Source of the DNA: Rhodobiaceae bacterium
GTDB taxonomy: Bacteria; Pseudomonadota; Alphaproteobacteria; MED-G09
Assembly (NCBI GenBank): GCA_002723035.1
Contig: PBNH01000021.1
Span: 1,272 to 65,271 of the forward strand
Length of the DNA: 64,000 nt
Reading direction: 5' to 3'
Shown: one piece after another, positions 3,616 through 46,371 of the stretch
Layout of the letters: every line of letters begins with the position of its first letter
How positions within the stretch are numbered: the first letter of the stretch is position 1
Translations under genes and position numbers: made by a program
Notes under the pieces: generated by a model
Database searches by the model: none
What the model saw: only the letters and a program-made list of their open reading frames with translations
What the model was told of the DNA's origin: nothing

Positions 3616-4134
3616 TTATATTTTTTTTTGAAAGTTAATTCCCTTGGACCTATTTCTTATTTTACTAATATTGTAATCATTCCAAAAACTCTCATGAGAT
3701 GTAAAATTCCATCCCTTCGAATAACAGATAAAATTTTTAACTCTAAATTTTTCTCGCCTTTGATAAGCAACATACTCACCAATATTATTAAATTTCATAA
3801 AAATAATATTCAAGTCGTTTTCATCAGCCGTTGCTATAGTTTCATCAATCCAGCTATCTAAGACTTTAGATTCATTTAATAGTAAATGAAATTTAAAATC
3901 TTTATAAAATTTACACTCACAATTGAAATAAATCCAATCATCGGGAGGGATAATATCGCCTTTAAAAGCCATTATCTGACCTTGAGACATTGAATACCTT
4001 CTGTCATAATTTTGCCCACCTAAAAAGGCACCGGATGTTGGCACTCTAATAAATTTTTCACCAAAAATTTCTGTTAAAAATTTTGCTTTTGCGTTTTCAA
4101 ATGACTTTCCTTTGACTTTTTGTGGTGAAGGCAT
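3616..4134 (-). CDS. Hypothetical protein (172 aa), no family recognised
   Basis: Clean ORF packed between tilS and yebC on the same strand. Acidic clusters present (PPDDW, DETIATADEND). Confidence 0.5.
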   Translation of the reverse strand: MPSPQKVKGKSFENAKAKFLTEIFGEKFIRVPTSGAFLGGQNYDRRYSMSQGQIMAFKGDIIPPDDWIYFNCECKFYKDFKFHLLLNESKVLDSWIDETIATADENDLNIIFMKFNNIGEYVAYQRREKFRVKNFICYSKGWNFTSHESFWNDYNISKIRNRSKGINFQKKI

Positions 4135-25742: not shown

Positions 25743-25768
25743 TTTCTTTGATTACCTATCGATACAAT

Positions 25769-27043: not shown

Positions 27044-27153
27044 TTTATCGAACCATATAGTTTAAAAAAATTAAATTTAATATAATTATTTGTTTATATC
27101 TATTATTATCATATATAAAATTAACTTATAACTTTATAATAATCATTAAAGTT

Positions 27154-27228
27154 GGGCGCGTAGCTCAGCGGTAGAGCACTACGGTGACATCGTAGGGGTC
27201 GCTGGTTCAAACCCAGCCGCGCCCACCA
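27154..27228 (+). tRNA. tRNA-Val (anticodon GAC), including 3' CCA
   Basis: Manual fold. 7-bp acceptor GGGCGCG/CGCGCCC, D-arm GCTC..GAGC, anticodon stem CTACG/CGTAG with loop GUGACAU (U33, anticodon GAC, A37), T-arm GCTGG-TTCAAAC-CCAGC, encoded CCA. Confidence 0.9.
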
Positions 27229-27250
27229 TTAATAGGATATTAGTAAAAAA

Positions 27251-27904
27251 ATGGAAAAGAGTAACTATAAAAAACTATCGAAAGAAATTGAAAATATTAG
27301 AAAAAATTCAACCATTTCAGAATTTCCAGAGAATCTTATTAATCTTGAAAAGAAATTTCCAAACAACACACTTATTCTACAGACCATAAGTAAAGCTTTT
27401 CTGAATGTTGGAGAAAATACAAAAGCATTGGATTACCTATTAAAAGCAAAAGAGGAGGAGCCAGATAATTTTTCTATCTACTTTAATTTAGGAATCTTGT
27501 TCAAAAAATTTAAAAAAGATGATGAAGCCATAATTAATTTTCAAAAATCCATATTCCTTAACAAAAATTTTGTACAAAGCTTAAATATACTAGCTGATAT
27601 CTATATTAATAAGGGAGAATTGACAAAAGCCTTAGAATGCCTAAAAAAGTCAGTAAAACTAGATATGTCAAAAAAAAATATTAAAGCAATTAATAGCTTG
27701 GGAATGGTTATTACAAGTATTTTCTTAAAAGATAAAGATGTTGAAAAATTACGTGAAGCAAAAAAATATTTTGAAAAGACTTATGAATTAGACAAGGATA
27801 ATGATATTTTTTACAATCAATTGATAAATTTTTATCATTTATCAGGAATGAAAAATGAAGCAATTTATCATTCGAAAAATAGGACTGGTGTTTTCATAAT
27901 TTAA
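27251..27904 (+). CDS. Stand-alone TPR-repeat protein
   Basis: 217 aa of TPR-like repeats. Resembles the N-terminal halves of the two fused TPR-oxygenase proteins. Confidence 0.55.
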   Translation: MEKSNYKKLSKEIENIRKNSTISEFPENLINLEKKFPNNTLILQTISKAFLNVGENTKALDYLLKAKEEEPDNFSIYFNLGILFKKFKKDDEAIINFQKSIFLNKNFVQSLNILADIYINKGELTKALECLKKSVKLDMSKKNIKAINSLGMVITSIFLKDKDVEKLREAKKYFEKTYELDKDNDIFYNQLINFYHLSGMKNEAIYHSKNRTGVFII

Positions 27905-27946
27905 AAAAAATGAATTAATTATGATTAATGGATTGTAAATTTTATC

Positions 27947-28561
27947 ATGGAAAAAATTGATATAAAAAATAGCGATATAAAAAATTTTATTGGATCATGG
28001 AAATTTGATAACGATGATTTAATAAATCAAACAATAAGTTTTTTTAATAAAAATCATGAACGACAAAATCCAAGTTTAGATTTAAAAGGTAAAATTAATA
28101 AAAAAGAAAAGGATTTCATAGAATTAATTATTACACCAAATGAAATTAAAGAGAAGAAACTAGAATTTTTTTCTGCCTATGTTGGTATTTTAAAAGCATG
28201 CTTTAAAGAATATAAAAAAAATTGGAATTTTCTCCAAAGTTGGAAAAAAATGTATTTAGGAGAATTCAAAATTGAGAAACATTTAATTGCTGGGCATCAC
28301 CTTGCATACCACTGTGATATAAATAACATTAACTCATCTCATAAGATTTTTTCATGGGCAATATATTTAAATGATTTTCATGAAGATGAGGGAAGTATTG
28401 ATTTTTTATATCAAGGTCTTTCAATCAGGCCAAAAAAAGGTTCTATTATTATTTTTCCTTCTGATTGGACCCATATCAACAGAGAGAATAAAATGAAAAA
28501 AAACGAAAAATTAGTATTAAGAGGGTGTTTTCATTTTCCGGATACTTTGAATGAGGGTTAA
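27947..28561 (+). CDS. Stand-alone putative 2OG-Fe(II) oxygenase (PF13759-like) without TPR
   Basis: 204 aa. HCD...FSWAIYLND...IIIFPSDWTHINR...LVLRG aligns with the catalytic halves of the fused paralogues. Confidence 0.5.
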   Translation: MEKIDIKNSDIKNFIGSWKFDNDDLINQTISFFNKNHERQNPSLDLKGKINKKEKDFIELIITPNEIKEKKLEFFSAYVGILKACFKEYKKNWNFLQSWKKMYLGEFKIEKHLIAGHHLAYHCDINNINSSHKIFSWAIYLNDFHEDEGSIDFLYQGLSIRPKKGSIIIFPSDWTHINRENKMKKNEKLVLRGCFHFPDTLNEG

Positions 28562-28697
28562 TGGACCTATTTATATTAGAACTTTTATAAGTAAAAAAAC
28601 TAATAACACACGAATCAAATTACTCTAGCCTTGAAAAATTTTAATTAATAACCAATTAAATAAAAATCAATATTTTTAATCAACGGAGGTGGATAAA

Positions 28698-28952
28698 ATG
28701 TTATTAGAAGGATTAGGAAAAGTTTCTTTTGTTAATGGTGTTTTAAGAATACAAGCATTAGCAATTGCTGCAGATGGAACTATGAAAGAGTCAGGAAGTA
28801 TAGAAATTCCTGGAAATATGGTTGCCGATGTCATCAATGGACTAAGCGCAGGTGCGACTGGCATATCTGAAAAATTAAATGAAAGCGCCCCATCTAATAA
28901 AAATGATAAATCTAGCAAAAAAGAAAAATCATCTAAAAATAAAAAGAAATAG
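28698..28952 (+). CDS. Small hypothetical protein (84 aa) with lysine-rich C-terminal tail. First gene of the T1SS operon.
   Basis: Strong Shine-Dalgarno GGAGGTGG 5 nt upstream of the ATG at 28698 (the ORF track began at GTG 28689). 3-nt gap to the tolC-like gene. Confidence 0.4.
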   Translation: MLLEGLGKVSFVNGVLRIQALAIAADGTMKESGSIEIPGNMVADVINGLSAGATGISEKLNESAPSNKNDKSSKKEKSSKNKKK

Positions 28953-28955
28953 TTA

Positions 28956-30317
28956 ATGAATAAAACTTTATTACATTCACTATACGTAATAAAAATAACT
29001 TTTATTGCTGCTCTGATAATACTGCCAGTTCATGCAAAAGATAGTATTGAAAATTCTATTGTAGAAAATTCACAATTATCATTTTCAAAAATTATCATGA
29101 AAACAAAAACAATTGGTGAAGATGATTACTTTGATTTCATTCGGAGTAGCATTATTGAACAACCAGAATTTTTATATGCAAACTCTAATTATACTGAAAA
29201 AAGGGAGTCTTTAAAATTTGCCAAAAGACAAAGATGGCCAGAATTATCAACTAGAATAATTAATGATCAAGTCCTAGAGAGAGATGTTAGTGAGCAAAAT
29301 TCTCTTAGAAAGAGACAAGATGATAGTTTTGATGCCGCTATAGAATTATCACAACCAATTTACTCTGGTGGAACTATTAATGCACAAATAAGAAAATCAA
29401 TTACAGATAAAAACTTATCCGAGGTTGAAAGAGAAAATGCATTATCAATACTTATTTTAGACGCTAACAGAATTTATCTAAATGCTGTAAAATCATACAC
29501 AATGTTTAATTATGCTGATAAAATTGTTGAGGAAATTCAACCTTATCTTAATAAAGTAAAAGAAAGAGTAAATTTAGGAATTTCTGATCCAATTGAGTTA
29601 GCTTTATTTTCAATTAAATACAACTCTCTTAAATCAAAAACACAAATTCTCAAAACAGAGATGAACAGAGATATTGGTATATTTGAATATTTCTTTGGCA
29701 AGAAATTTAATTCTATTTATTTTCCTAATATTTTTGTTCCCGAAATTGAAATGGATAGAAAAAATGAGGCCTATGAGGTTAAAGCTTCAAAACTAAGTTT
29801 TGAGGGATCAAAAGAAGACACAAACATCGTAAGAGGTGAGTTTAGACCAAAATTTGGTTTTAATACCAGATACACGATTTATGATTTAAAAGATAATGAT
29901 AATGATACAGATATTAGAGGTGGTATTTTCTTTTCCATGCCAATATTTACTTTTGGAAGGTCAACTGCAAAAATTGCTGCATCAAAGGCAAAAGAAAATG
30001 CACTTGAAATGTCAATCGATGTTGAGAGAAAAAATGATGATGTTGCAGAAAATGAAGTTGTAAACCTTGTTAAAAGTGCTTTTAATACAAGAGAAGATAT
30101 TATTAATTCACTTAATGATACAAAAAATCAAAGGAGGATTATAAAAAATAGACTCGATTCTACAAACTTTTCACCAGAGAGTTTTGTTACAAGTAGTATT
30201 GAGGAGATTGATTTACTGAATCAAGCTTTATCGATAGAAATGAATATGCTGCATGGGTATTTTACTTTTCTTCACCAAAATCAGTCTCTAACCTCACATT
30301 TAAGGATTAAACCATGA
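28956..30317 (+). CDS. TolC-family type I secretion outer-membrane protein
   Basis: 453 aa. N-terminal signal peptide (IAALIILPVHA). Helical-repeat TolC-like architecture and operon context with ABC/MFP. Confidence 0.75.
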   Translation: MNKTLLHSLYVIKITFIAALIILPVHAKDSIENSIVENSQLSFSKIIMKTKTIGEDDYFDFIRSSIIEQPEFLYANSNYTEKRESLKFAKRQRWPELSTRIINDQVLERDVSEQNSLRKRQDDSFDAAIELSQPIYSGGTINAQIRKSITDKNLSEVERENALSILILDANRIYLNAVKSYTMFNYADKIVEEIQPYLNKVKERVNLGISDPIELALFSIKYNSLKSKTQILKTEMNRDIGIFEYFFGKKFNSIYFPNIFVPEIEMDRKNEAYEVKASKLSFEGSKEDTNIVRGEFRPKFGFNTRYTIYDLKDNDNDTDIRGGIFFSMPIFTFGRSTAKIAASKAKENALEMSIDVERKNDDVAENEVVNLVKSAFNTREDIINSLNDTKNQRRIIKNRLDSTNFSPESFVTSSIEEIDLLNQALSIEMNMLHGYFTFLHQNQSLTSHLRIKP

Positions 30318-32026: not shown

Positions 32027-33004
32027 ATGAAGAAATTTTTAGAAAAAATAAAGCTATCTAGTAATAATCTTTTTACCAACTTTAATAGAGAAAAGTTAGA
32101 AAATCTAATACCTTATTTGGTTCCAGAGTTTTGGGCATCAAATAGAAAATCTTTTTTACTATTTTGGTTTATTGGCATATTTACAATATTTTTTATAATT
32201 TGGGCATCTTTTGCAGAAGTAAACCAAGTGGTTAGAGCACAAGGAACTGTTGTTCCAGACTCTAAAGTACATCTTGTTCAGTCAGGTATTTCTGGTCCGA
32301 TACAAAAAATAAACATTAAACTTGATGATAGGGTTGAAAAAGGAGATATACTCTATTTAGTTGATCAAGCTAATACACAAAAGTTTTATGATTTAGCTAA
32401 GAAAGAATATGAAACTCGTTTAAGAAAAGTAGAAATATTGAAAAACCTTGTTAGAAGTGGATCAGATTCTGAATTTAGACTTTTAGATGAAGAGCTCTTA
32501 CTAGTAGATGCTGAGGGAAGGTACAATTCAGCAAAAAAAAATCTAGAATTCTCTACTGTAAGAGCTCCTATATCAGGAAGTATTAGCAACCAAAATGTTA
32601 CAAATATTGGACAGCTAGTATCCTCTGGTGATTTATTATCTGAAATTGTTCCAAAAGATGATTTCTTAAAAATTGAAGCTTTTATAAACCCTAAAGATAT
32701 TGCTTATGTTAGACAGGGGCAAAAGGCAAAAATAGCTTTCTCAGCTTATGATTTAGCAATATACGGACAATTTGAAGGTATTGTAAAGAAAGTAGCAGCC
32801 AATACAACTTCAAATCAAGAGGGAGAAACTTATTATCCTGCCATTATAGATTTAAATTATGATGACATAAAAAACTCCGATCGAAAAGTCATTCTACAAT
32901 CTGGAATGATTTCTGATGTATCCATCATTGGAGAGGAAAGAACAGTAATTAGCTACGTTCTCAACCCTATTACAAAACTCTCAAAAACAGCCTTACAAGA
33001 GTAA
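32027..33004 (+). CDS. HlyD-family type I secretion membrane fusion protein
   Basis: 325 aa. Single N-terminal transmembrane segment, coiled-coil region and beta-barrel MFP features. Start overlaps the ABC stop. Confidence 0.8.
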   Translation: MKKFLEKIKLSSNNLFTNFNREKLENLIPYLVPEFWASNRKSFLLFWFIGIFTIFFIIWASFAEVNQVVRAQGTVVPDSKVHLVQSGISGPIQKINIKLDDRVEKGDILYLVDQANTQKFYDLAKKEYETRLRKVEILKNLVRSGSDSEFRLLDEELLLVDAEGRYNSAKKNLEFSTVRAPISGSISNQNVTNIGQLVSSGDLLSEIVPKDDFLKIEAFINPKDIAYVRQGQKAKIAFSAYDLAIYGQFEGIVKKVAANTTSNQEGETYYPAIIDLNYDDIKNSDRKVILQSGMISDVSIIGEERTVISYVLNPITKLSKTALQE

Positions 33005-33005
33005 T

Positions 33006-33761
33006 TTATTTTTTTTCTAAATTTTTAACGTAATTAGATGCTTCCAATAAGGTATCAAACGTTCCTGTATCAAGCCACGAATAATTTGAGTCTAGCTTTT
33101 TTACATTTAATTTATTGTTATTTAAATAGATCATATTTAAATCAGTAATTTCATACTCACCCCTAGTCGATTTTTTTAGAGTATCAGCTAGTGATGAGGC
33201 GTTATTATCATATATATACAAACCAGTAACGATCAAATTCGATTTAGGTTCCTCTGGTTTTTCTTCAATTGATAAAATATTCGATTTTTCATCAAATTCT
33301 AAAACACCAAATCTTTCAGGTGTATTGGATTCTATGCAAAAAATTGTTGCACCTTGATTTTTATATATGGCATCAATTATTAACTCATTAAAATCTGGTC
33401 CGAAAAAGAGATTATCGCCCAGAATAAGGGCGACACTTGAGTCATTAATCCAGTCCTCACAAATTATTAATGACTGGGCAATACCTTCAGGCTTTTTTTG
33501 AATAATATAGTCAATGTTTATGCCCCATTCGTCCCCATATCCCAAAAGTTTTTTAAAATTTTCTTGATCTTCTTTTGTTGTAATAATCATTACATCTTTT
33601 ATTCCAGTATCAATTAAAACTGAAAGAGGATAAAAAATCATTGGTTTATTATATACTGGTAAAAGTTGCTTTGAAGTAATTTTGGTTAAGGGATATAAGC
33701 GCGTACCCGCTCCACCAGCAAGAATTATTCCTTTTATATTTTGATTATCATTTATACTCAT
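33006..33761 (-). CDS. rfbA: Glucose-1-phosphate thymidylyltransferase
   Basis: 251 aa. GIILAGGAGTRLYPLT N-terminal motif. Confidence 0.9.
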   Translation of the reverse strand: MSINDNQNIKGIILAGGAGTRLYPLTKITSKQLLPVYNKPMIFYPLSVLIDTGIKDVMIITTKEDQENFKKLLGYGDEWGINIDYIIQKKPEGIAQSLIICEDWINDSSVALILGDNLFFGPDFNELIIDAIYKNQGATIFCIESNTPERFGVLEFDEKSNILSIEEKPEEPKSNLIVTGLYIYDNNASSLADTLKKSTRGEYEITDLNMIYLNNNKLNVKKLDSNYSWLDTGTFDTLLEASNYVKNLEKK

Positions 33762-34712
33762 TTAAATCTCATCTAAAATTTGAGGCAATGCTTTTCTTAC
33801 AACTAATCTAACAGAGTCTTCCCATGAGGAAAATTTTATATTATTTTTTAAATAATAATCAAAATCGGTATAAAGCCTTGTATCAATAGATCTCTTAGCA
33901 TCAGATTTCCATTCACTTAATGTTATTGGTATTAATTCTGAATCTAAAGATTTTTGTAAAACAGTTTCTAATTCAGTAAAAATTATTTTAGCCACTAAGT
34001 ACCAAGTTGAAAAGCCAGGTGAACAAAAATGAAATATCCTTTCATTAGTATTTATATTTTTTTTATATAAATCAATTATTTGTACAATATTTCTTGAAAA
34101 ATCTTGAGCAAATGTCAAAGAAATTTTTTGATCAGAAACTACTCTTACACGACGATTTGTAAGTAACAATTTTATCATACTCTTAACGAAATTAGTTCCA
34201 TACTGGCTAAATACTGATGAAAAACGAATTATAATTCCCGATTTGTGATTTGTTAAAACAGCATCCTCACCTTCAGATTTAGTTAGGCCATAAAAATTAA
34301 TTGGTGCTTTTTTATCACCTGGGTAAAAAGGAGCATTCAAGGTTTTCCCAAAAACATAATCTGTTGAAATATGAATAAGTTTGATATTTTTAGTATCAGC
34401 CTCCTTTGATAAAATATCAACACCTGTATGATTAACCCTTTTAGTAATATCTTTTTTCTTTTCTGCGCCATTTACATCAGTAAATGCACCTAAATTAATA
34501 ATGTAATCAAAATTATCATTATTAAGGAAATTCTTAATTGATGCTTGATTAGTCAAATTAAGTGCTTTAGATGAAGGAAATGAAAAATTTAAATTTAATT
34601 TATGCTTTTGATTTTTTATTTCAGTCCCAACCTGACCTGATCCACCGATAACTAAAACTTTTAAATTTTTGTTATAGTTTTCCAAGTCTTTCACCCGAAT
34701 ATTTTTTTTCAT
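33762..34712 (-). CDS. rfbD: dTDP-4-dehydrorhamnose reductase
   Basis: 316 aa. STDYVF...YGLTKSEGE motifs. ORF-track start overlaps rfbB by 41 nt. Confidence 0.8.
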   Translation of the reverse strand: MKKNIRVKDLENYNKNLKVLVIGGSGQVGTEIKNQKHKLNLNFSFPSSKALNLTNQASIKNFLNNDNFDYIINLGAFTDVNGAEKKKDITKRVNHTGVDILSKEADTKNIKLIHISTDYVFGKTLNAPFYPGDKKAPINFYGLTKSEGEDAVLTNHKSGIIIRFSSVFSQYGTNFVKSMIKLLLTNRRVRVVSDQKISLTFAQDFSRNIVQIIDLYKKNINTNERIFHFCSPGFSTWYLVAKIIFTELETVLQKSLDSELIPITLSEWKSDAKRSIDTRLYTDFDYYLKNNIKFSSWEDSVRLVVRKALPQILDEI

Positions 34713-35721
34713 TTAAATTTAAATAATTTTTGTTATCTAAATACCATTTAACTGTATCCTCTATACCCTTTTCCCAAGAAAATTTTGGTTTCCAGCCTAA
34801 ATCTTTTATTTTATTATTATCAAGTGAATATCTAAAATCGTGCCCAGGGCGATCTTTGACAAAATTGATTAATTTATTGTATGAAAAATTCTCTAAAGGA
34901 AGTTTTTCATTTAAAATATTACAAATACTTTTTATAACCTCAAGATTCTCAATTTCACAATTACTACCGATATTATATTTTTCACCAACTTTTCCTTTAT
35001 CCAAAACTTTTAATAATCCACTTACATGATCCTCAACCCTAATCCAATCTCGTATCTGTTTACCATCACCAAAAACTGGAATTTTCTCCTTTTTTAGACA
35101 TTTATTTATAGTTAAAGGAATTAATTTTTCTGGAAATTGCCAAGGTCCATAATTGTTAGAAGTATTTGTTATTATTAGAGGTAATTGATAAGTTTTATAC
35201 CAAGATCTTACTAAATGATCCGCTGAGGCTTTTGAAGCTGAGTAAGGGCTGTTTGGCTTATAATTACTCTCTTCATTAAATGGTGAATCATGCTGACCAA
35301 GAGAACCATAAACCTCGTCGGTAGAGATATGAACAAATCTAAATTTTTTTTTATTTATGGTATTTAAATTTTTCCAGTACGAAAGGCTTTCACGTAGTAA
35401 ATTATATGTTCCTAATATATTAGTTTCAATAAAAGAACTTGGACCATCTATTGATCTATCAACGTGAGTTTCTGCAGCTAGATGAAAAACAGCATCAGGC
35501 TGAAAATTTGTAAAAATATCCATTATCTCTTTGCTTTTAGAAATATCGGCTTTGATTAACTTATAGTTATTTTTATTTGTAACTTGAGTAGCATTAATAT
35601 TTGCTGCATAAGTAAGATTATCAATATTCAGAATTTCAATATTATGATTTTTTGCTAGAGATCTAATTAGACAAGACCCTATAAAACCACAACCTCCAGT
35701 AATTAGTATTTTATTGTACAA
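34672..35721 (-). CDS. rfbB: dTDP-glucose 4,6-dehydratase
   Basis: 349 aa. ITGGCGFIGS...HLAAETHVDRS...YSASKASADHLV. Confidence 0.9.
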   Translation of the reverse strand: MYNKILITGGCGFIGSCLIRSLAKNHNIEILNIDNLTYAANINATQVTNKNNYKLIKADISKSKEIMDIFTNFQPDAVFHLAAETHVDRSIDGPSSFIETNILGTYNLLRESLSYWKNLNTINKKKFRFVHISTDEVYGSLGQHDSPFNEESNYKPNSPYSASKASADHLVRSWYKTYQLPLIITNTSNNYGPWQFPEKLIPLTINKCLKKEKIPVFGDGKQIRDWIRVEDHVSGLLKVLDKGKVGEKYNIGSNCEIENLEVIKSICNILNEKLPLENFSYNKLINFVKDRPGHDFRYSLDNNKIKDLGWKPKFSWEKGIEDTVKWYLDNKNYLNLNEKKYSGERLGKL

Positions 35722-35731
35722 AAAATTCCCC

Positions 35732-36283
35732 TTAAAAATCTATCTTCTCACGAATTTCATCCCAAAAAGGTAAGTTTAAATCTTTTTCAGATATAATTAA
35801 TCTCTTTTTATCAACGGGCCAATTTATTTCAAAAAAAGGGTCATCCCATTTTAAACCTTGTTCAAATTCTTTATTATAGTAATTATCAACTTTATAAATA
35901 ACTTTTGTATCGTTTTCTAATGTACAAAAACCGTGAGCGTAACCTCTGGGTATGTATAGCCAACCATCTTTTGGAGTTAGAACATATGAGGAATGAGTTT
36001 CAAAATTACTAGAATTTCTTCTGAGATCAATAAAAACGTCAAATATTTTACCTTTATCAACTTTTATTAATTTGGATTGGGCATAAGGATTTATTTGAAA
36101 ATGAATACCTCTTAAGGTATTTGAATAAATAGAAAAAGAGGAGTTATCTTGAATAAAATCATCCAATATTCCTAATTCTGCCATCTTTTTTTTGTTATAT
36201 ACTTCAGTGAAAGAACCTCTATTATCCTCAATAATATCGGGCAAAATATTTATAACATCATTAAAAATAACTTTCTTTCTCAT
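35732..36283 (-). CDS. rfbC: dTDP-4-dehydrorhamnose 3,5-epimerase
   Basis: 183 aa. RGIHFQ...KLIKV...RGYAHGF cupin motifs of RmlC. Confidence 0.9.
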   Translation of the reverse strand: MRKKVIFNDVINILPDIIEDNRGSFTEVYNKKKMAELGILDDFIQDNSSFSIYSNTLRGIHFQINPYAQSKLIKVDKGKIFDVFIDLRRNSSNFETHSSYVLTPKDGWLYIPRGYAHGFCTLENDTKVIYKVDNYYNKEFEQGLKWDDPFFEINWPVDKKRLIISEKDLNLPFWDEIREKIDF

Positions 36284-37566
36284 TTTAGCAAACTCTCAAC
36301 TAATTCTAGCTGTTTGGGTAAACTTATAGATTTCAAATCATAATTATTAACAATTGTTTTTCGTGCATTTTTTTTCATTAATTTATATTTTTTGGGATTA
36401 TCTAAAACATCGATAACTAACTTTGATAAACCCTCAACATCAAAGAAATCAACAAGCAAGCCATTTTTATTATTTTTTATAACCTCTTCTACTGGAGCAG
36501 TTTTTGAACCAATAATTAAAGCTTCAAGAGCCATTGCTTCAAGCATTGACCAAGAAAGTACAAATGGATAGGTCAAATAAACATGAACACTTGATATGGC
36601 TATAATCTTTAAAAAATTGCCATAATTAATTCTCCCAAGAAATAGAATTTTTTCTGGGTCAACTAAGTCGTTCTTAACTTCATTAAAATAAATATCCTTA
36701 AAACTTTCACCGGTATTTGAATTAGAGCCATAACTTACTTTATCACCGCCAATGATTAACACATAAGCATCAGGATGTTTTTTTTGTATCTTGGGTAGTG
36801 ACCTCATAAATGAATGATATCCTCTATAAGGCTCTAAATTCCTATTAACAAATGTGATTATTTTATTATCCTTTGATAACTTTATCTTTTCTTCTGATGG
36901 TAATGTCAGAGTAATGTCACCAGTACTTACAGGACGAATAATATCTGTATCGATACCATCATGAATAACATTAATTTTTTTATGAAGAATTTTTGGGGCT
37001 GTTGATTTTTGAAATTTTGTAGGACTTATTAGTAAATCGGAATCTAAATATGACATCATTCCAGGTGCATTTCTTGCCCTTAATCTAGAAAATAACTCCA
37101 GACTAGGTTTTGGATAGTGTGGTTCATTTGTATCAAAGTCTACATCTGAATTAATGGTATTATAATAGAATTCAAAATAGGATAAAAGTTTTACATTAGG
37201 CCATATTTCTTTTACTAAAAAAGTTTCTCCCCAACCTGGATGATCAATTATTAAATCTGGACTAAAACCATTATTTTTTAACTCCAGGCATTTTAAAGAT
37301 ACGGCTTCAGCCCTTATCATTTTTGTTTCAAATTCAGTAGCCAGTGTGTGAATATTTTTGGATGTTCCTTTTTTTATATCATATAAATGATTTGTAATAT
37401 CGCTAAAATTACTCAACCTTTCTTCAGTTTCAACTGGATCTTTATTGCTGACAGATAAACTGTGAATTTCATATTTTTTTTTACTACTCAGAAATGGTGC
37501 CAGTGACTTATACTGTCCAGGAAAATTTTGATGAATAAATAATATTTTCTTTTTAGCCATCGTCAT
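36280..37566 (-). CDS. Glycosyltransferase (GT4-like)
   Basis: 428 aa. C-terminal SMLEAMALEALIIGS...GLLVD (E-x7-E-like GT-B motif). ATGA overlap with rfbC. Confidence 0.65.
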   Translation of the reverse strand: MTMAKKKILFIHQNFPGQYKSLAPFLSSKKKYEIHSLSVSNKDPVETEERLSNFSDITNHLYDIKKGTSKNIHTLATEFETKMIRAEAVSLKCLELKNNGFSPDLIIDHPGWGETFLVKEIWPNVKLLSYFEFYYNTINSDVDFDTNEPHYPKPSLELFSRLRARNAPGMMSYLDSDLLISPTKFQKSTAPKILHKKINVIHDGIDTDIIRPVSTGDITLTLPSEEKIKLSKDNKIITFVNRNLEPYRGYHSFMRSLPKIQKKHPDAYVLIIGGDKVSYGSNSNTGESFKDIYFNEVKNDLVDPEKILFLGRINYGNFLKIIAISSVHVYLTYPFVLSWSMLEAMALEALIIGSKTAPVEEVIKNNKNGLLVDFFDVEGLSKLVIDVLDNPKKYKLMKKNARKTIVNNYDLKSISLPKQLELVESLLK

Positions 37567-39253
37567 TGCCTCTTGTAGTTAAATATCCAAACTTAATAAG
37601 CCAAATAATAGTTTCAAAAACTTTAGTTTCTTCTATATTTGTACTATTAATAACTTGATTAACATTTAATTTATTATTTGTAGAAAATAATTCATAGATA
37701 GATTTAATATTATCCTCCGTCGGTAAATCTCTTTGAGCATATTCAACACTTTTAAATTTTAAAAGCTCATTAAATGATAAACTATTAATATTATCTAATT
37801 TGTATAATACAGTTTTTTTGCTCAGAATATTTGAGGGATACGATGAAAAAGTAAAAAATGGATCTTGTCTATCACTGGGTAAACTCTTTAAACAGAACGT
37901 TTTGTAGTTTAATGATACTGTTTCCCTAATTTTATTTAATTCAGATGATAAATTCCTATACATTGATAGGATTACAGGCCAATTAAAATCTTCTTTAGCT
38001 CTTATTTTTGCAGATTCACCAAATTTCTTTCTTTGTTCATCATTCGTAACTAAAATTCTCAACTTTTCAATACAATCTTTTATATCCACACTAACCTTTT
38101 GAACTGACAGACCAACATAAAGATCATAATTAATATCATTCATCATATATCTATAAGCAATATCTTCTCCATAACCATCAGGCAAGGAAATAGTCTTTGC
38201 TCTAAAACCATCTACACTATCTCTTGCTGTTGATTTATAACCATCCCAATCCGACACTAAAACTGGAAGACCAGCAGCCATACCCTCCAAAGGCGTTAGA
38301 CCAAATGTCTCTTGAATATTATCGCTTAACGAAACAAAAATATCCCCTGCAGCCAAGGTTTTATGTTTATTATCCTGATCTTTACCATCCAAAAAATGAA
38401 ATTTAATTGATGGGCATATTTTTATACCTTCCTCAACAAAGGATTCCTTTACGAAATCATTTGCAAACCAACCAGTTTGAATAATATGAATTTTTTGACC
38501 ATCTTTCAGCTCTTTAGAAATCTCTTCAATAGCTAAATACATAGGCAGATGATGAGCCTTAGCATGAAAGCTTAATCGCCCAACATAAGCTATAACAATA
38601 TCTTCATCATTTATATCAAGTGATAATCTGGATTTTTTCTTAAAATCCTCCGAATAATTAAATTCATCAACATCTAATCCCAATGGAATAACAGGTAATA
38701 AGGGTAGCTCAGGTTTGGAAATATTAAATTTAGATTTTAACCTTTGATATCTATGATCGATTATTTTTTCAACAGTATCTAATACACAACTTGAAGTACA
38801 GATTATTGCATCCCAGGGCATAATATCTGACATTATAATATTTGATATACCAGACATAACCGCATGAGAGGCTGTGGTATGAGTAATTCCAACTAAACTA
38901 TATTTATTATGTCCATGAATACTTCTTTTACTTGCAAAATCATTAATTCCAGGCCCTGGTAGAAATATCCCACCATATGGTTCAGACTTATGGGGTTGAT
39001 TATAAGGAATAAAATCAACTTCCAATTGTTGGTCCTTCTTCATAAGTGGTTTAACTTTTTTGAGTAAAAGTTCTTTTTGTTCCTGATTTTTGATATAAGC
39101 ACTTATTCTTTTAGGATCATCCTTAATTAAAGCCTTCAAAAAAGACCAGCCAGCAGCTTGACGACCCATTATTCTATTACCTTTTATATCATAACCCTCG
39201 TCATCATAATAAATGGACCAATACGGAAATTCACTTTGATAATCATCAGCCAT
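37553..39253 (-). CDS. Glycosyltransferase family 4 protein with about 150-aa C-terminal extension of unknown function
   Basis: 566 aa. ETFGLTPLEGMAAGLPVLVSDWDG canonical GT4 motif. Confidence 0.7.
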   Translation of the reverse strand: MADDYQSEFPYWSIYYDDEGYDIKGNRIMGRQAAGWSFLKALIKDDPKRISAYIKNQEQKELLLKKVKPLMKKDQQLEVDFIPYNQPHKSEPYGGIFLPGPGINDFASKRSIHGHNKYSLVGITHTTASHAVMSGISNIIMSDIMPWDAIICTSSCVLDTVEKIIDHRYQRLKSKFNISKPELPLLPVIPLGLDVDEFNYSEDFKKKSRLSLDINDEDIVIAYVGRLSFHAKAHHLPMYLAIEEISKELKDGQKIHIIQTGWFANDFVKESFVEEGIKICPSIKFHFLDGKDQDNKHKTLAAGDIFVSLSDNIQETFGLTPLEGMAAGLPVLVSDWDGYKSTARDSVDGFRAKTISLPDGYGEDIAYRYMMNDINYDLYVGLSVQKVSVDIKDCIEKLRILVTNDEQRKKFGESAKIRAKEDFNWPVILSMYRNLSSELNKIRETVSLNYKTFCLKSLPSDRQDPFFTFSSYPSNILSKKTVLYKLDNINSLSFNELLKFKSVEYAQRDLPTEDNIKSIYELFSTNNKLNVNQVINSTNIEETKVFETIIWLIKFGYLTTRGNDDG

Positions 39254-39869
39254 TACTAGATCTCTTTTTATTTACATGTTCTGTAATTTTAGCTGATAAT
39301 TCTTCTTTGGTTAATGATTTTGACTTATAAGCTAAAGCCCATAAAGCATAAGCGTTCTTATCTTCGCCAATAATAAAACTCTTAAAACCTGACTGATTTA
39401 ATATATCATTCATGCTCTCAGAGGTAAAACCGTTACGGTGAGCCATATGCTCATTCCCAGCTGCCATTGAAGGTCTATGCCCATAGAGAATATCTAGAGG
39501 GTAAATATCACCTGATGGTGCAGTGTAGAGTTTTCTTCTGATATTACCCTCTCCAATTAGTTTGCAAACCGACTTAATATCAGGACAAGTAAGTACCAAA
39601 AAACCTTCATCGTTTAAAACTCTTTTAAATTCTCGCAATGTTTGGATAACCTCATGAGCAAAAACATGCTCGATATTATGCGAAGAGTAAACAGCATCGA
39701 AGGTAGAATCTTCAACACTGGACATATCTTGAATTGAACTAATAATATCAGGATTAACATCTGGATTAATATCTAAACGAACTTCATTCCAATCATCAGA
39801 ATTAAAGACAGAAGTAGTATTATCTTTATAATACATACCAGGACCTACATGCAAAAAAGTTTTAGTCAT
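39246..39869 (-). CDS. Putative class I SAM-dependent methyltransferase (first gene of the glycosylation operon)
   Basis: 207 aa. FLHVGPG motif-I-like and LVLTCPD motif-II-like segments. 8-nt overlap with the downstream GT4. Confidence 0.5.
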   Translation of the reverse strand: MTKTFLHVGPGMYYKDNTTSVFNSDDWNEVRLDINPDVNPDIISSIQDMSSVEDSTFDAVYSSHNIEHVFAHEVIQTLREFKRVLNDEGFLVLTCPDIKSVCKLIGEGNIRRKLYTAPSGDIYPLDILYGHRPSMAAGNEHMAHRNGFTSESMNDILNQSGFKSFIIGEDKNAYALWALAYKSKSLTKEELSAKITEHVNKKRSSNG

Positions 39870-39903
39870 AGTACTTATTATAAATTAAAGAAATTATTTT
39901 GCA

Positions 39904-39930
39904 TAAAAAAAAGGGAAGCCGAAGCTTCCC
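39904..39930 (-). terminator. Rho-independent terminator of the giant RTX gene
   Basis: On the minus strand, 21 nt after the stop: GGGAAGC-UUCG-GCUUCCC (7-bp GC-rich stem, UUCG tetraloop) followed by U9. Confidence 0.85.
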
Positions 39931-39951
39931 TTAATTTCAATAAGTTATTGA

Positions 39952-42900
39952 TTAGACCATTAAGAAGTCTGCGGCAACAAATGCACCGTCAGTAATAGTC
40001 TGATCAAACATAACAACCGGTATTAAGTCAGCTGCAACGTTTGGATTAGTTGTTCCATCAACATGATAAATAACAGTTACATTTGTATCATAAGCAATCA
40101 AATAATAATCATCATCGGCACCATCAGATGTAATACTTGCCGCAGTAGCTCCAGATGATAAAGTTTTAAGTAATTCAACACCTGTTCCTGCTGCAAAGTC
40201 AGTAGCAAGGTTACCATCAGCAACTGTAATACCTGTAAGCTCAACAATATCAATAGCCGCAGTATTAATATTAATACCATCAGTATCAGTAGCACTTCCA
40301 ATATTAAAGGTAGCACCGTTATCAACAGCAGTTACTGCTAGAGTTACCAATACTGGAGCAACATTATCACTACCAGCTAACTCTGAAGCTGTATTCTCAA
40401 GATGAACAACGTCACCAACAGTTGTACCAGCATCCTCGAAATCATTGATTTCTGTTCTGTTAGCTGTAGCAACACCAAGAGCTAAGAAAGTATCATCTCC
40501 TGTACCACCTGTAAGAACATCAACACCTGTACTTGAAACAATTGTATCGTTACCAGCACCAGCATCAATAATATCAGCACCTGCACCTGAAGTAATGCTA
40601 TCAGCACCTGCACCGGATGTAATAGTATTAGCACCAGCACCGGCTGTAATAATATCAGCACCAGCACCAGAAGTAATAGTATCATCACCTGAACCAGTAG
40701 TGATTATGTCATTACCATCAAGAGTTGTAATTGTAGTAGCAGTATCGTCATCACCGGATACAGTAACGTCAATATCAGCACCATGGAAACTGTCTAGGCC
40801 AGAAAGTGTGATTGCATAGTCATCAGAGTTAAGAGTTGAGTCACCATCCATGTCGATGTAAAGAACATCGTTATCTTTAGCAAATACAAAACTACCACTT
40901 GAATTATTCATTGCATTAACTGCTTCACCAGCATTAGACACGTCACCTTTATCAGCTAGGATAAAGGATGTTGTATTACCATTTGCAACCGCACCTGAAG
41001 AAACTACAAGACTAATTGAGTCACCGTTTGTAACTTGAGCGCCTGTAGTAGCATTTAGTGTTGATTGCGTAAAGTCTGTGATTGTATCTTTGGTATTACC
41101 AGATGAGTCTGCGATAGTGTCATACTTAAAGATATCATTACCAGCACCACCAGTAAGATTATCGGCACCTGCGTCACCTTCAATGGTATCAGTTCCATCA
41201 CCACCACTAAGAACATCATTTCCAGCAGCACCGTTGATAATATCATTACCAGCACCACCGTTTACAATATCATTACCAGCGCCGCCATTTAATGTATCAG
41301 CACCAGAGTTACCAGTAATTGAGTCATTACCTGAACCACCTGTTAATGTATCACCTACAGTAGTACCACCACCTGTAATGGTGTCATCACCTTTTGAACC
41401 AATAAGTTGGTCAGATGCAGTACCACCAGTAATAGTAAAGTCAATATCTACTGTATCAACAGAAGTATTAACATTGAAAGTTGCAGATCCAACAGTTTTA
41501 TTGGATAAATCAATCGTCATAGTTCCTGTATTTAAGGAAGCTGTACTATTAACTACGATTTGGATATCAGCAGCACCACTTGTAACTGCATCAACTGTAT
41601 ATATTTCAACTTTTTCAATTCCAGTAACAACATTGAAGTTTATAACACCAGTTACAGCAGCATCATTTTCAAGTTGGATGGTATCAGTACCAGCACCACC
41701 AGCGATAGTATCATTTGTTGCTAGATGTGTTGTACCATCAAACCTGAAAGTATCATCACCGGAACCACCAGTGAAACTATCAGCATTGACATTACTACCA
41801 TTATCAATAATTAAGAATGCACCATTGGATACAGCAGAACCGTCAATAGTTGTCACATTATCAGTTGTTGTACTTGTTATTGTTAAGGTATCTAAGCCAA
41901 GATTAGTAAATGTTTCGTTACCAAAGGTAAGGCTTGTTGTATTACTTCCAAGAGTAATTTTTTCAATACCAATTAATTGAGAAAGTTCAGGAGCGGTAAG
42001 TGTAAGATCAGCCGCTTCTGTAAATGATAATGTATCTGTACCAGCACCACCATCAACAGTTTCAACACCACCAGCAACTTTAAAGTGTACGTCATCTGCA
42101 ACGATAATAATATCATTACCATCACCAGCAGTAATGTGATCAACACCAGCTCCACCTGTTATGCTGTCAATACCAGTACCACCTTCAATGGTATCATTAG
42201 CAGCACCACCTATTAGTGTATCATTACCACCATTACCAGTTAACGAGTCAGTACCTGAACCACCTGTTAGACTATCACCAAATCCACCACCAATAGCTGT
42301 CAATTTAGTGTTGTCACTATTTGTAACAGATAGTAATTCACCATTTGTAAGTGTTGTAACATTAGCATCCAGAGCTGAACCATCAACTGTGATTGCTGCT
42401 CCTAAGAAACCAGAGGCAATAGTAACAGTAACATCACCAGCACTTTGATCGACAGCAAGGTCAGTAACTACAATCTTTTCAACATTAGTTACATTTGCAC
42501 CAATAGCACCAGTAGTTGAGTCACCAGTTGTATCAGCATCATCATCATTTTCAAGATAAATAATATCAGAACCAGCATTACCATCAATAGTATCATCAGC
42601 AGTTAAGCTCTCAGTAGCTTGGAAAGTAAATGTATCATCTGAGGATGAACCAACTAATTTTAGATTACCAGCTGCAGTTGCTTTAACGCTAATAGCTGTG
42701 CTCATTAATGAAGCACCAGCTGTGTCTTCACCACTAGACAAAGTACCAGCTCCAGCAAAATTAAATGCAAGGCCAGGGTTATTGGCAATAACAGTATCAC
42801 TTATTGTGAAGTCACTACCTTCTGGGATTGTCCAATTTTCAGTATTAGTAATAGTAGAAAGTTGAGCTGCAGTTAGATTTTGAGCACCTGTGAAGGTAAC

Positions 42901-45900
42901 AGTATCATTACCAGCACCACCGTCGATGATATCAGTACCAGATGCTGTTGAATATTCAGTTTTAGCATTAAGTGTAAAGGTATCATTACCTGCTCCACCT
43001 AACATACTGTCTAAGCCTTCATTACCGTCAATAGTATCAGCACCTTCACCACCTAAGATAGTATCATTAGTTGTACCACCATCAAGAATATCAGCACCAC
43101 CACCAGAAGTTACGCTTAGTGAAATCTGTGAACCATCACCAATTAGAGTGAACACTTCATCAGCTGATGTTGAACCATCAAGTTCGGTAGCATCGATAGT
43201 AAGAAGTGACTCAGTAGCAGTTGTTATATTTTCATTCACTGTAAGTTTTGCATCTGTACCAGCACTTGTAGAATCTTTAATAATAACTTTTTCTACTTTG
43301 GTAACGTCATCAAGATCTGCAGTTGTAGCGCCATCAGCAGTAAGCTCAAGAGTATCAGTTCCTGAACCACCTGTAATTGTAAAGCCGTCAACAACATCGG
43401 TTGTATTACCTTTAACAGTTAAACCAACATTTGCTGAGTTGATAATTGCTTTATTATTAGTAGCACCAACATCGGTAACTGTAACAGTTGTATCTGCAGT
43501 CCATGTTTTACCTGTACCACCAAGTGTTAGAATTTGAGCAGATGCTGAATCAATTTTAAACGTAGTAGCACCACCCATACCACCATCAGCAGTAATGTTA
43601 ATAGCACCAATTGGATTAATTATTTCAATATTACTTACACCGCCCATAACTGATGAATTTGAAATACCAGCAGTTGTTGTAAGGGTATCAGTTCCTGCTC
43701 CACCATCAATTATATCAGTATTAGCAAGGCTTGATTCTGCAGTAATAATATCATTACCGTCGCCTGCTGTAATGTTATCAGCACCAGTACCTAGAGTAAT
43801 GGTATCGTTACCAGCACCTGAATCAATTGTGTTAACACCAGCATTAGCGTCGATAATATCATTACCAGCACCAGATGTTAGTGTATCGTTTTTCGTACCA
43901 AGTGTAACAATATCACTAGCAGCACCTGTTTTAACATCAAGAGGTGTTGCAGCGCTTGTACCTGTAATAGTAACAGCATTAAGAGCTGTAAGTGTATCAG
44001 CGTTAATTGTTAAAACACCAGTTCCAGCAGGAGTACCAATAGAGTAAGCTCCGGTAACAATTGTTGGAGCAGCAGTTGCACCAAATGCTACTAAATTAAT
44101 TGTTTCGAAAACATCATTGTTGGTATCAAAAGTTGTTGTACCAGTTGCAGTATTCACGATATTTAATACATCGCTAGTACCTGTACTACCTGTAATATCA
44201 GTATCAGTTCCAAATGAACCATTATTAGCTTGAACAGTAAGTTGAACATTTGCATTATTGTTAATTACATCTGCAGATGCAGCATCTGATCCAATTTTAA
44301 CTGTTGTCGCATTTGTATAACCATCATTAAGATTGATTGTTTGAACTGAGTCATGTTGCACATCAATAGTAGTTGCTGAAATGTTTGATTCAAGTGTTAA
44401 TGTATGTGCAGTGTCGATCGCAACAACTTCAACATTACTTAATCCACCAAAAACAGTAGATGAAGCACCAGCATTTGTATAGGTACCATCTAATCTTAAG
44501 GTATCTGTTCCATCACCACCATCATATGTATCGGTTCCAGCCCATGTTCCATCAAAGTCAGCAGTATCATTACCACCACCCATTGAAAGTGTATTTTTAC
44601 CAGTAGCTACAGCAGTTAATGTATCTGCAGCAGAACTACCAGTAATTGTTACATTTGAAGCACCAGGAGCATTTGTTAATGTAAGACCACCAGTATTTGC
44701 AGAAGCGTCAACTGTTGTAACATTTGAGTCTAAAGCAGCAGTAATTGTTAATGCTGAACCACCGGTTACAGTTAATGTAGGAGTTAAAACACCATCAATT
44801 TGAAGATCTGCAAGAGTATTTGCAACAGAAACACTATCAATAGTTAAAGACTCAAGAGCACTTGATGTTGAAGTGCTGTCGTCTGTAATAGCTACAGTGG
44901 TTGAGTTTGTTCCAGAGAGTTTCAATGTCATTGAGTCTGCAGCACCTGTTAAAGCTGTCGAGGCATAATTAACAGTAGTTGTATTTGGAGCTGATTTAAC
45001 TGTTAAATCAACTGGATTTGCTAAGTCATTAAAAGTAACACCATCACCACCAGCTATATTAGCTAATGAAGTAATACCTGAAATACCAGCAAGAGCGATA
45101 GTTAATGTATCATCATCGGCAATAGTATCATCTGCGATGCTATTAGTAGCTTGGATAACTTCTATGTTAGATAATTGAGGAATTAGAGTTAATCCATCAG
45201 CTGCTGATGCACTTTTCACAGTTAATGTATCTGTACCAGCACCACCATCTAGAACATCATAGTCATTAAGACTATCGGCTGTAGTTCCATCAAAAGAGTC
45301 ATTACCACTTCTACCTGTGAATGTATCAACACCGGTTGTGAGTGTGAATGCAGCTGTAGTAGCTGATGAACCATCATTATTAATAAGAATTATATCGCTA
45401 GAAATTGAATTTGAATTAGAATCAAAAACACTAACTTTCATACCTTCAATACCCTCAACAGTTGAGTCAGTTGTTGGAGTTACAGAGAAGGTTGTTGAAG
45501 TTGAGCCAGCGGCTATTGTTGCTGTACCGGATAAAAGATCAACATCAGTTGTTCCAGCTTTATCGACAGTACCACCATTATCGTCACCAATTACAGTCCA
45601 GGAGAAAGAAGTGTCAGCAGTCACAGCGACACTAGATGTAATTGTAAATACGGCGGCATCACCTTCTGTTACGCTAGTAGCAGATTTTGCTACAGAGTAT
45701 GAAGCACCACCACCACTTGACCATGCAGTACCTTGAACTGTTACGTCAGAAGCACCAGCCACAGATCCAGAAGTTGGAAGTGAAGCAACACCAGCTCCAG
45801 CGGCAAAGGCTGCAAATGAGCTTACTGAACCAGATGTTCCTGCAGTTGCATTACCACCTAAGTCATAAGTAAAATTACTTGCACCATTAATCGTTACAAC

Positions 45901-46140: not shown

Positions 46141-46371
46141 TTATTTTCTCCCTAAAATAACAACAAGTCGTTGTACTCATAAAAATTTCGATAGCAAAAA
46201 TCTGCTAACGAATCACAAAATCCTACATTTCGTCAAAAACGTCAATATAAAATAATTTATATTGTAACCAAATGTAACAAACTTTATCAACCTTTTTTTA
46301 AATTTTAATTATGTCTTAAATAAGGCGGTTGATAAAAAAACATTAACCTTATTAAATTGTTTCAAATTTCC

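Follow-up and report, generated by a model that had tools for sequence, protein, structure and literature searches.

The 64,000-nt stretch of contig PBNH01000021.1 (assembly GCA_002723035.1, Rhodobiaceae bacterium), called the window below, carries on its minus strand at 33006–39869 seven open reading frames (ORFs) for a methyltransferase, two GT4 glycosyltransferases (566 and 428 aa) and the products of rmlC, rmlB, rmlD and rmlA. Comparison of related loci indicates that this operon is very probably the enzyme arm of a vertically conserved surface cassette, which also encodes a giant RTX protein and a type I secretion system (T1SS). The best explanation of its function, to which we assign a probability of roughly 0.4, includes direct glycosylation of the still-unfolded RTX cargo in the cytoplasm. 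Judged by sequence, the DNA belongs to an alphaproteobacterium of the PS1 clade; the 566-aa glycosyltransferase (GT566) has counterparts with 95% and 91% identity in two PS1 single-cell genomes, in which the gene order is the same. A preliminary description of this DNA, centred on the enzyme genes and the giant gene, had overlooked the T1SS operon, the p658 and p267 genes and the conservation of the whole cassette of about 21 kb. The features of the cassette are the following:

48614–49417, minus strand: p267, FkbM-like methyltransferase (weak TIGR01444 fkbM_fam match)
46372–48348, minus strand: p658, probable lipoprotein (lipobox ...ILAAC, then a poly-Gly run)
46261–46290, minus strand: promoter-like site 5′ of the giant gene, TTGATA-18-TACAAT (consensus match only)
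39952–46140, minus strand: giant RTX protein of 2062 aa, presumed type I secretion substrate (PF00353)
39905–39932, minus strand: intrinsic terminator/attenuator with a 9-bp stem, a 4-nt loop and U8, AAGGGAAGC-UUCG-GCUUCCCUU + U8
39877–39882, minus strand: perfect TATAAT hexamer, candidate −10 box of a leaderless promoter or AU-rich translation element
39246–39869, minus strand: MT207, small class I S-adenosylmethionine-dependent methyltransferase of 207 aa (Pfam Methyltransf_11/23/25)
37553–39253, minus strand: GT566, GT4 enzyme of 566 aa, GT-B (Pfam Glycos_transf_1)
36280–37566, minus strand: GT428, GT4 enzyme of 428 aa with N-terminal Glyco_trans_4_3 (PF12000), ExpC/WgcA family
35732–36283, minus strand: rmlC, dTDP-4-dehydrorhamnose 3,5-epimerase (TIGR01221)
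34672–35721, minus strand: rmlB, dTDP-glucose 4,6-dehydratase (TIGR01181)
33762–34712, minus strand: rmlD, dTDP-4-dehydrorhamnose reductase (RmlD_sub_bind; start uncertain: 34712, 34694 or 34685)
33006–33761, minus strand: rmlA, glucose-1-phosphate thymidylyltransferase, short form (TIGR01207 match)
32027–33004, plus strand: HlyD/AprE-type membrane-fusion protein, 325 aa
30314–32026, plus strand: type I secretion ABC transporter, 570 aa (ABC_membrane and ABC_tran)
28956–30317, plus strand: TolC-like outer-membrane factor, 453 aa (OEP domains)
28689–28952, plus strand: small ORF directly 5′ of the OEP gene, 87 aa here and 81–95 aa overall, present in all lineages (no Pfam match)

Conservation and content of the cassette

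The cassette is kept in all seven PS1 lineages examined for synteny, in which the GT566 homologues are 62, 55, 51, 50, 46, 45 and 44% identical to GT566 (44–95% when the single-cell genomes are included), and its outer flanks differ from one lineage to the other. As proposed here it would comprise, in this order, the FkbM-like methyltransferase, the lipoprotein, the RTX giant, the terminator, MT207, GT566, GT428 and rmlCBDA, with the T1SS genes convergent on the last. Across the PS1 lineages the block consists of an optional lipoprotein gene, the RTX giant, the terminator, sometimes one extra gene, then MT207, GT566, GT428 and rmlCBDA, and it ends with a short RmlA followed by the convergent genes for HlyD, ABC, OEP and the small ORF.

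Similar associations were found outside the PS1 clade when homologues of GT566 and GT428 were sought by tblastn against plasmids. The two homologues are neighbours in three cultured clades, while in a fourth some 6 kb lie between them; an RTX gene stands beside the enzymes in all four clades, which represent two phyla, and T1SS genes are nearby in three of them. Counting PS1, soluble glycosyltransferase genes adjoin an RTX gene in five clades. In Niveispirillum cyanobacteriorum, a single strand carries, in order, two RTX genes (RTX719 and RTX1214), the GT566 and GT428 homologues, a methyltransferase, an ORF, and the ABC and HlyD genes; the two RTX proteins are 31–36% identical to the PS1 giant over 390–840 residues and, on this basis, are true homologues of parts of it. 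Plasmid p5 of Azospirillum brasilense Cd encodes an RTX-M10-like protein, a GT566 homologue and rfbCBDA, facing convergent Sel1, HlyD and ABC genes, with MT201, a GT428 homologue and MT517 situated 4 kb upstream. In Rhodovastum atsumiense, the order is an RTX/DUF4214 protein, an MT207 remnant, a p267 homologue and homologues of GT566 and GT428. The p267 of the window shares 43% identity (E 3e-76) with this p267 homologue, a 267-aa ORF that immediately precedes the Rhodovastum GT566 gene, and it is therefore counted as part of the conserved enzyme set, although it lies 5′ of the lipoprotein and giant genes. Finally, Desulfolutivibrio sulfoxidireducens has a 2166-aa RTX protein encoded divergently from the GT566–GT428 pair, with a T1SS nearby, and CDP-sugar genes replace rml, which suggests that the invariant core is the RTX gene plus the glycosyltransferase pair rather than the sugar. 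Owing to this recurrence in four clades and to the homology of the Niveispirillum proteins with the giant, the association of these enzymes with RTX/T1SS loci goes well beyond chance. Two further loci were looked at in this connection. A 6526-aa ORF near a solitary GT566 homologue (L028) was considered as a linked substrate and rejected, as it has no RTX domain. A 3.2-kb contig from a Flammeovirgaceae metagenome bin (L003, CAJWTC010000075.1) carries an MT207–GT566 pair, with a GT566 homologue 63% identical to that of the window, and is probably a mis-binned PS1-like contig.

These data bear on the alternative that an ordinary O-antigen or surface-polysaccharide operon happens to lie next to the RTX and T1SS genes without any functional tie to them. 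The combination of rml, GT4 and methyltransferase genes is indeed a common lipopolysaccharide (LPS) gene set, and five GT566 homologues have no RTX gene nearby, four being solitary among housekeeping genes and one belonging to an O-antigen-like cluster of A. argentinense. Nevertheless, a purely incidental neighbourhood is very unlikely in view of the position kept between the RTX and T1SS genes in seven lineages with different flanks, the RTX genes beside the enzymes in four other clades with different sugar pathways, and the terminator followed immediately by the next ORF, an arrangement that amounts to transcriptional coupling. The functional tie between the operon and the giant RTX gene, suggested in the preliminary description, is thus strengthened by both the synteny and the recurrence.

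The seven minus-strand ORFs of the operon have the lengths given in that description, and Pfam and NCBIfam assign the functions that it had proposed. MT207 and GT566 overlap by 8 nt, GT566 and GT428 by 14 nt and GT428 and rmlC by 4 nt (ATGA), a gap of 10 nt separates rmlC from rmlB, the overlap of rmlB and rmlD amounts to 41, 23 or 14 nt, depending on the choice of the rmlD start, and rmlD and rmlA abut with 0 nt between them (TAAATG). The statement that the genes are packed with ATGA or 8–14-nt overlaps is accordingly true of three or four of the six junctions and not of the rest, but the packing is tight throughout, and the view that the seven genes form one translationally coupled operon is supported.

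Among the sugar-pathway enzymes, RmlB (TIGR01181, 436.8 bits versus a cut-off of 365.1) and RmlC (TIGR01221, 180.5 bits versus 155.75) score as equivalogs. RmlD reaches 199.4 with TIGR01214, under the cut-off of 224.05, and 216.8 bits over its full length with Pfam RmlD_sub_bind. RmlA, of 251 aa, scores 344.6 with TIGR01207, just under the cut-off of 360.65, because the protein covers profile positions 1–242 and stops there, 242 of 286. It thus lacks about 44 C-terminal residues. Truncation by the abutting hlyD gene was considered as the cause and rejected, since the short form (243–260 aa) is conserved in all PS1 lineages; the RmlA copies of Azospirillum and Sinorhizobium are full length.

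The giant protein contains 13 HemolysinCabind stretches (PF00353, E-value 1e-67), and its gene displays 27-nt periodic repeats. It consists of 16.5% Thr and 8.9% Ser, with 1.9% Lys plus Arg and no Cys. Its C terminus, ...AADFLMV, is an acidic residue followed by hydrophobic ones; the orthologues end in DFLLV or DFVLG, except those of L016 and L017, which differ. We take this end to resemble the secretion motif of the PrtG/AprA type. Orthologues in other PS1 lineages are 37–56% identical to the giant, and a search of PDB sequences with the giant returned matches on the RTX blocks only, no similarity to RsaA being found outside these blocks. The idea that the T1SS-like pump exports the glycan itself was set aside, the giant having both RTX repeats and a C terminus resembling the T1SS type.

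Upstream of the giant gene, p658 is rich in Ser, Thr, Ala and Gly, with a hydrophobic stretch preceding its LAAC lipobox, a Gly/Ser linker and an (ETPAE)n repeat, the latter encoded by a perfect tandem repeat of 15 nt × 13.6 at 46764–46967. Its gene is kept 5′ of the giant gene in L004, L007, L010 and L014. The protein could serve the RTX protein as an outer-membrane anchor or as a partner, and glycosylation of its own low-complexity linkers is also conceivable.

Probable terminator read-through and a possible promoter

The terminator after the giant gene, with the operon starting 34 nt downstream according to the preliminary description, was borne out by our measurements, the distance from the last U to the MT207 ATG (39869) being 35 nt. 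The hairpin has a folding energy of −14.2 kcal/mol, and the intergenic fold has a z-score of −4.0 versus shuffles. A hairpin with U8–9 is present after the giant gene in all nine lineages compared, and the terminator is strong (−14 to −17 kcal/mol). The UUCG loop is not kept in relatives, the stem and U-tract alone being conserved; the stem variants, GGGAAGC/GCUUCCC, GGGGGGU/ACCCCCC, GGGGAAC/GUUCCCC and GGGCGGU/ACCGCCC, represent compensatory substitutions. In the covariation count for the stem, 100% of the cells are paired and three pairs (six cells) are changed on both sides.

In three lineages, L012, L016 and L017, the next ORF begins 7–16 nt past the U-tract and no TATAAT-like box is found; with a start so close to the U-tract, the enzymes of these lineages must be fed by read-through. 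This supports attenuation by the terminator as the ancestral design. In the window, a perfect TATAAT hexamer ends 7 nt before the MT207 start codon, and a match of at least 5/6 to this hexamer is found 6–7 nt before the methyltransferase start in five of the five lineages in which MT207 comes first, even though the spacer has diverged. The corresponding background is 3 of 47 genes, and the random expectation is 9%. The MT207 gene is essentially devoid of a Shine–Dalgarno sequence (−1.0 kcal/mol), the sole other such gene in the cassette being rmlD (none, by its first ATG); that of the giant gene is the strongest in the cassette (GGGAG, −8.7 kcal/mol). The conserved box has the geometry of a leaderless promoter, and the assertion that an independent promoter could not fit is therefore not established in the window.

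Alternatively to read-through, the hexamer at 39882–39877 might drive a leaderless mRNA whose 5′ end is at, or close to, the ATG at 39869; the terminator, whose strength is in keeping with such a role, would then simply insulate the operon from the highly expressed giant gene. This model is possible and would be compatible with either of the glycan acceptors considered below. It draws on the box and its conservation and on the near absence of a Shine–Dalgarno sequence, but the −35 region falls in the U-tract and matches TTGACA at only three of six positions, the site is missing from the list returned by a simple promoter scan, TATAAT-like strings are common in DNA of 27–30% GC, and three lineages manage without the box. 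The earlier proposal that the operon is expressed by read-through thus gains from the start spacing in L012, L016 and L017 and loses from the conserved −10-like box, owing to which other transcripts than those from read-through may contribute to, or even dominate, the expression of the operon in the window's lineage. Taken together, the comparisons make it fairly probable that leak-through of the conserved terminator supplies at least part of operon transcription, to which a weak leaderless promoter at 39882–39877 may add in the lineage of the window. A search for the ops/JUMPStart element of RfaH-type antitermination gave no exact GGCGGTAG anywhere in the window and, on the minus strand, no match with one mismatch in the cassette or 5′ of it.

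Acceptor of the glycan

MT207, GT566 and GT428 have no predicted transmembrane segment. AlphaFold2 models of GT566 (pLDDT 90) and GT428 (pLDDT 92) both display the two-Rossmann GT-B fold with GT4 enzymes as structural neighbours. GT566 carries in addition a C-terminal extension of about 200 aa that is helical or winged-helix-like. Both Glu residues of the E-x7-E motif are invariant in GT566 (E315 and E323); in GT428 the second alone is kept (E343, invariant) and Phe occupies the position of the first. MT207 has FLHVGPG as motif I and is 43% identical to A. brasilense MT201, which precedes the GT428 homologue. A PDB sequence search retrieved generic GT4 fragments only for the two glycosyltransferases and nothing for MT207.

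In the mechanism that we prefer, RmlA–D would provide dTDP-L-rhamnose, from which the two soluble GT4 enzymes and the methyltransferase(s) would build a short, probably methylated, rhamnose-containing glycan directly on Ser/Thr residues of the RTX protein while it is still unfolded in the cytoplasm. The ABC/HlyD/TolC machinery would then export the glycosylated protein, by analogy with the acylation of HlyA by HlyC before export. Most transcripts of the giant gene would stop at the terminator, and leak-through would yield only a small amount of enzyme relative to the structural protein. In this scheme we infer that rhamnose is the sugar transferred, that it is methylated, that the acceptor is a protein and that read-through actually takes place. 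Likewise, dTDP-rhamnose is proposed as donor solely from the co-transcription of the glycosyltransferase genes with rmlCBDA; homologous pairs elsewhere occur with CDP-sugar genes or without any sugar genes.

Direct glycosylation of the cargo is ranked first because the order RTX gene then glycosyltransferase gene recurs with different RTX proteins, because the Niveispirillum glycosyltransferase genes sit between substrate and transporter genes, and because no PS1 cassette holds lipid-carrier or export genes. Among known systems, the nearest by logic are hlyCABD and the Caulobacter rsa genes with the O-antigen genes, and the nearest by gene content is the exp cluster of Sinorhizobium meliloti. 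Export of HlyA by a T1SS follows its acylation in the cytoplasm. In hlyCABD-type operons, as in the PS1 cassette, the gene for the modifying enzyme belongs to the transcription unit of the RTX substrate and an intrinsic terminator follows the structural gene; partial read-through of the hlyCABD terminator sets a high ratio of structural to accessory transcripts. The differences are that this terminator precedes transporter genes, whereas here it precedes sugar enzymes, with the transporter genes convergent and ops/JUMPStart not found, and that the modification is acylation, whereas in the PS1 cassette it would be glycosylation. Soluble glycosyltransferase genes adjoin that of a large Ser/Thr-rich surface protein with dedicated export in the systems of GtfA/GtfB with serine-rich repeat proteins, Aah/TibC with AIDA-I/TibA, and HMW1C with HMW1. 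GtfA and SdgB are GT4 enzymes and figure among the fold matches of GT566, at ranks 31–50, but GT566 and GT428 are no closer to them than to other GT4 enzymes. These cytoplasmically glycosylated adhesins are exported via Sec/SecA2 or two-partner secretion, in contrast to the T1SS of the PS1 cassette. RTX glycoproteins are reported loosely, oscillin being described as glycosylated and SwmA with the words 'appears to be glycosylated' (PMC3034196).

The preliminary description had likened the locus to those of S-layer glycoproteins and had pointed to a Thr/Ser-rich cargo. The slg loci of Geobacillus and Paenibacillus do resemble the cassette in that rml, glycosyltransferase and methyltransferase genes lie just 3′ of the surface-protein gene. 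They are defined by a lipid-carrier pathway, with a priming transferase, a Wzm/Wzt exporter and a WsaB-type oligosaccharyltransferase. Among the cassette ORFs of the window and of the seven related PS1 loci there is no priming phosphoglycosyl transferase, flippase, Wzm/Wzt or Wzx exporter, polymerase, ligase or O-oligosaccharyltransferase, and since the defining machinery is not in the cassette, the slg analogy fails. The composition of the cargo stands as described, but a Thr plus Ser content of 25% is typical of RTX surface proteins that are not glycosylated and is not evidence by itself.

Several observations weigh against direct glycosylation of the RTX protein by these enzymes. In Foldseek searches, GT566 has only generic GT4 neighbours (HepE, MshA, PimB′ and BshA), and GT428 matches best with PglA, an enzyme acting on a lipid-linked sugar. 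The sole characterized relative of GT428 is ExpC of the S. meliloti galactoglucan cluster, and other GT428 homologues lie next to waaC in Ralstonia and in an rfb/Wzm–Wzt cluster in Bradyrhizobium. The Niveispirillum array adjoins Wzx/Wzz/YjbH polysaccharide genes, and the solitary GT566 homologues and that of the A. argentinense O-antigen-like cluster, mentioned above, point the same way. Retaining GT4 enzymes are not the usual rhamnosyltransferases. Finally, no case of a glycosylated polypeptide exported through a T1SS was found in the literature searched, and searches on glycosylated T1SS/RTX substrates, SwmA glycosyltransferases and PS1-clade genomics returned no description of such a system.

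In another reading, the operon would decorate an envelope glycoconjugate, either the LPS core or O-chain or an exopolysaccharide (EPS) on lipid A-core or on a lipid carrier encoded elsewhere. The RTX protein would then need the glycan as anchor or matrix, or the glycan would need the RTX protein, the two being co-inherited and co-expressed without covalent linkage. This explanation is a plausible one to which we give less credence than to cargo glycosylation, but it has the better experimental precedents, namely the Caulobacter RsaA S-layer on O-antigen and ExpE1/ExpD1D2 with galactoglucan in S. meliloti. The exp (wg) cluster on pSymB comprises an ExpC/WgcA-family GT4 enzyme with PF12000, encoded 3′ of a MarR regulator at the ExpC position and 34% identical to GT428 over the full length (E 4e-86), and shares with the cassette an RTX protein (ExpE1), a PrtDE-type T1SS (ExpD1/D2), four rml genes (ExpA7–10) and a methyltransferase of class I (ExpE3); mutation of expD blocks EPS II production (PMC1403797). 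Unlike the PS1 cassette, the exp cluster is much richer in genes for glycosyl-, pyruvyl- and acetyl-transferases and its product is a secreted polymer, its ExpE1 is small, and its genes form several divergent operons that are not behind the terminator of the RTX gene. The remaining ExpA/ExpE transferases, the pyruvyl transferases and the ExpG regulator, which are present in the exp cluster (L025), are not in the PS1 cassette, and tblastn found no GT566 homologue on Sinorhizobium plasmids. According to a review, only dTDP-glucose is used as donor in the exp cluster, despite the full rhamnose pathway. The roles of that pathway and of ExpE1 may be related to the function of the PS1 cassette.

In Caulobacter crescentus, likewise an alphaproteobacterium, the rsaA–rsaDE locus encodes an acidic, Cys-free and Thr-rich RTX surface protein and a PrtD-type T1SS. 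O-antigen sugar genes reportedly adjoin this locus, as Awram and Smit are said to have described in 2001. The function of RsaA depends on a specific envelope glycan, the O-antigen, on which it is anchored (PMC11026435). In contrast with the PS1 cassette, the sugar is perosamine, the transferases are different and RsaA is not glycosylated. In Phaeobacter inhibens, the rml genes have the same order as here (rmlC-B-D-A) and are required for surface attachment (PMC5030684), and the 65–70-kb plasmids of Phaeobacter, which are among the Roseobacter 'biofilm plasmids', carry a GT428 homologue (38% identity) near an RTX gene and a T1SS. On the 65-kb plasmid of P. inhibens, unlike here, these genes are dispersed among polysaccharide genes, and tblastn found no GT566 homologue. 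Judging by its title, the study of Jofre et al. (2004; reference of PMC3391215) reports that dTDP-rhamnose mutants of A. brasilense change LPS core and EPS. The LPS or EPS contexts of the homologues in A. argentinense, Ralstonia, Bradyrhizobium and Niveispirillum, as well as PglA as the top fold match of GT428, also favour an envelope acceptor. The A. brasilense rhamnose genes concerned are presumably those in the L024 locus. An envelope acceptor is, however, less easily reconciled with the cassettes of the seven PS1 lineages, in which no priming, flipping, polymerizing, ligating or polysaccharide-export gene is found. It also predicts less naturally that the order RTX gene then GT566 is repeated with RTX proteins that differ widely, one of them being protease-like and 563 aa long, and that the glycosyltransferase genes of Niveispirillum stand on one strand between the substrate and transporter genes.

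The literature searched gave no description of the GT566 family, of its pairing with an ExpC-like GT4 enzyme and two methyltransferases, or of its placement behind an RTX terminator. It is tempting, if rather doubtful, to suppose that GT566 and GT428 together with both methyltransferases are dedicated to the O-glycosylation (methyl-rhamnosylation), in the cytoplasm, of RTX proteins destined for type I secretion. No earlier example of such a system would then be known; it would be spread over the PS1 clade, Rhodospirillales and Desulfovibrionales and tuned by a conserved leaky terminator, and it may explain the presence of rml, methyltransferase, RTX and T1SS genes in the S. meliloti galactoglucan cluster, the polymer of which contains neither rhamnose nor methyl groups. 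Should the cargo be glycosylated, T1SSs would be able to carry glycosylated polypeptides, and a new protein-glycosylation family would be defined. If the glycan goes to the envelope, the cassette would represent a compact, co-inherited combination of a surface protein and its anchoring glycan, like Caulobacter RsaA and O-antigen. In either case, enzyme genes placed immediately behind a conserved terminator would offer a clean natural example of how attenuation sets the ratio of enzyme to structural protein. Bacteria of the PS1 clade abound in surface waters of the ocean, and the cassette probably builds their main surface protein structure. Since the GT4 pair and the methyltransferases travel with RTX proteins, mostly together with T1SS genes, across two phyla, the idea that some T1SS substrates are glycoproteins becomes testable in cultured carriers such as A. 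brasilense Cd and Niveispirillum.

Type I secretion genes and outer flanks

The T1SS operon (OEP, ABC and HlyD genes) converges on rmlA, the stop codons being 1 nt apart (33002–33008), and this tail-to-tail abutment of rmlA with the HlyD gene is kept in all lineages (0–10 nt). Folding of the operon 3′ end revealed no terminator hairpin between the two convergent operons (z = 0.03), and antisense transcripts from each into the other are therefore expected. The membrane-fusion protein is short for a T1SS adaptor (325 aa, and 315–327 aa in relatives), and the 570-aa ABC transporter is devoid of an N-terminal C39, C39-like or peptidase domain.

Beyond the small ORF, the flank (24477–28952) carries genes that have the look of protein modifiers. 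Those for a tetratricopeptide repeat (TPR) protein (27251–27904) and a PF13640 2OG-Fe(II) oxygenase (27947–28561), like the small ORF, have the same direction as those of the OEP, ABC and HlyD proteins, and two TPR+2OG-FeII_Oxy_5 paralogues are encoded on the minus strand at 24477–27043. In other PS1 lineages, TPR-sulfotransferases or methyltransferases of about 630 aa are found on this side instead. The T1SS-side flank may thus be a variable set of enzymes that modify the cargo or the glycan.

The rest of the window, outside the cassette, consists of housekeeping genes, and an Rfam scan of the whole window gave a tRNA-Val as its sole match. Between tilS-like and yebC-like genes, a 172-aa ORF on the minus strand (3616–4134) encodes a phage-type PDDEXK_15 endonuclease domain.

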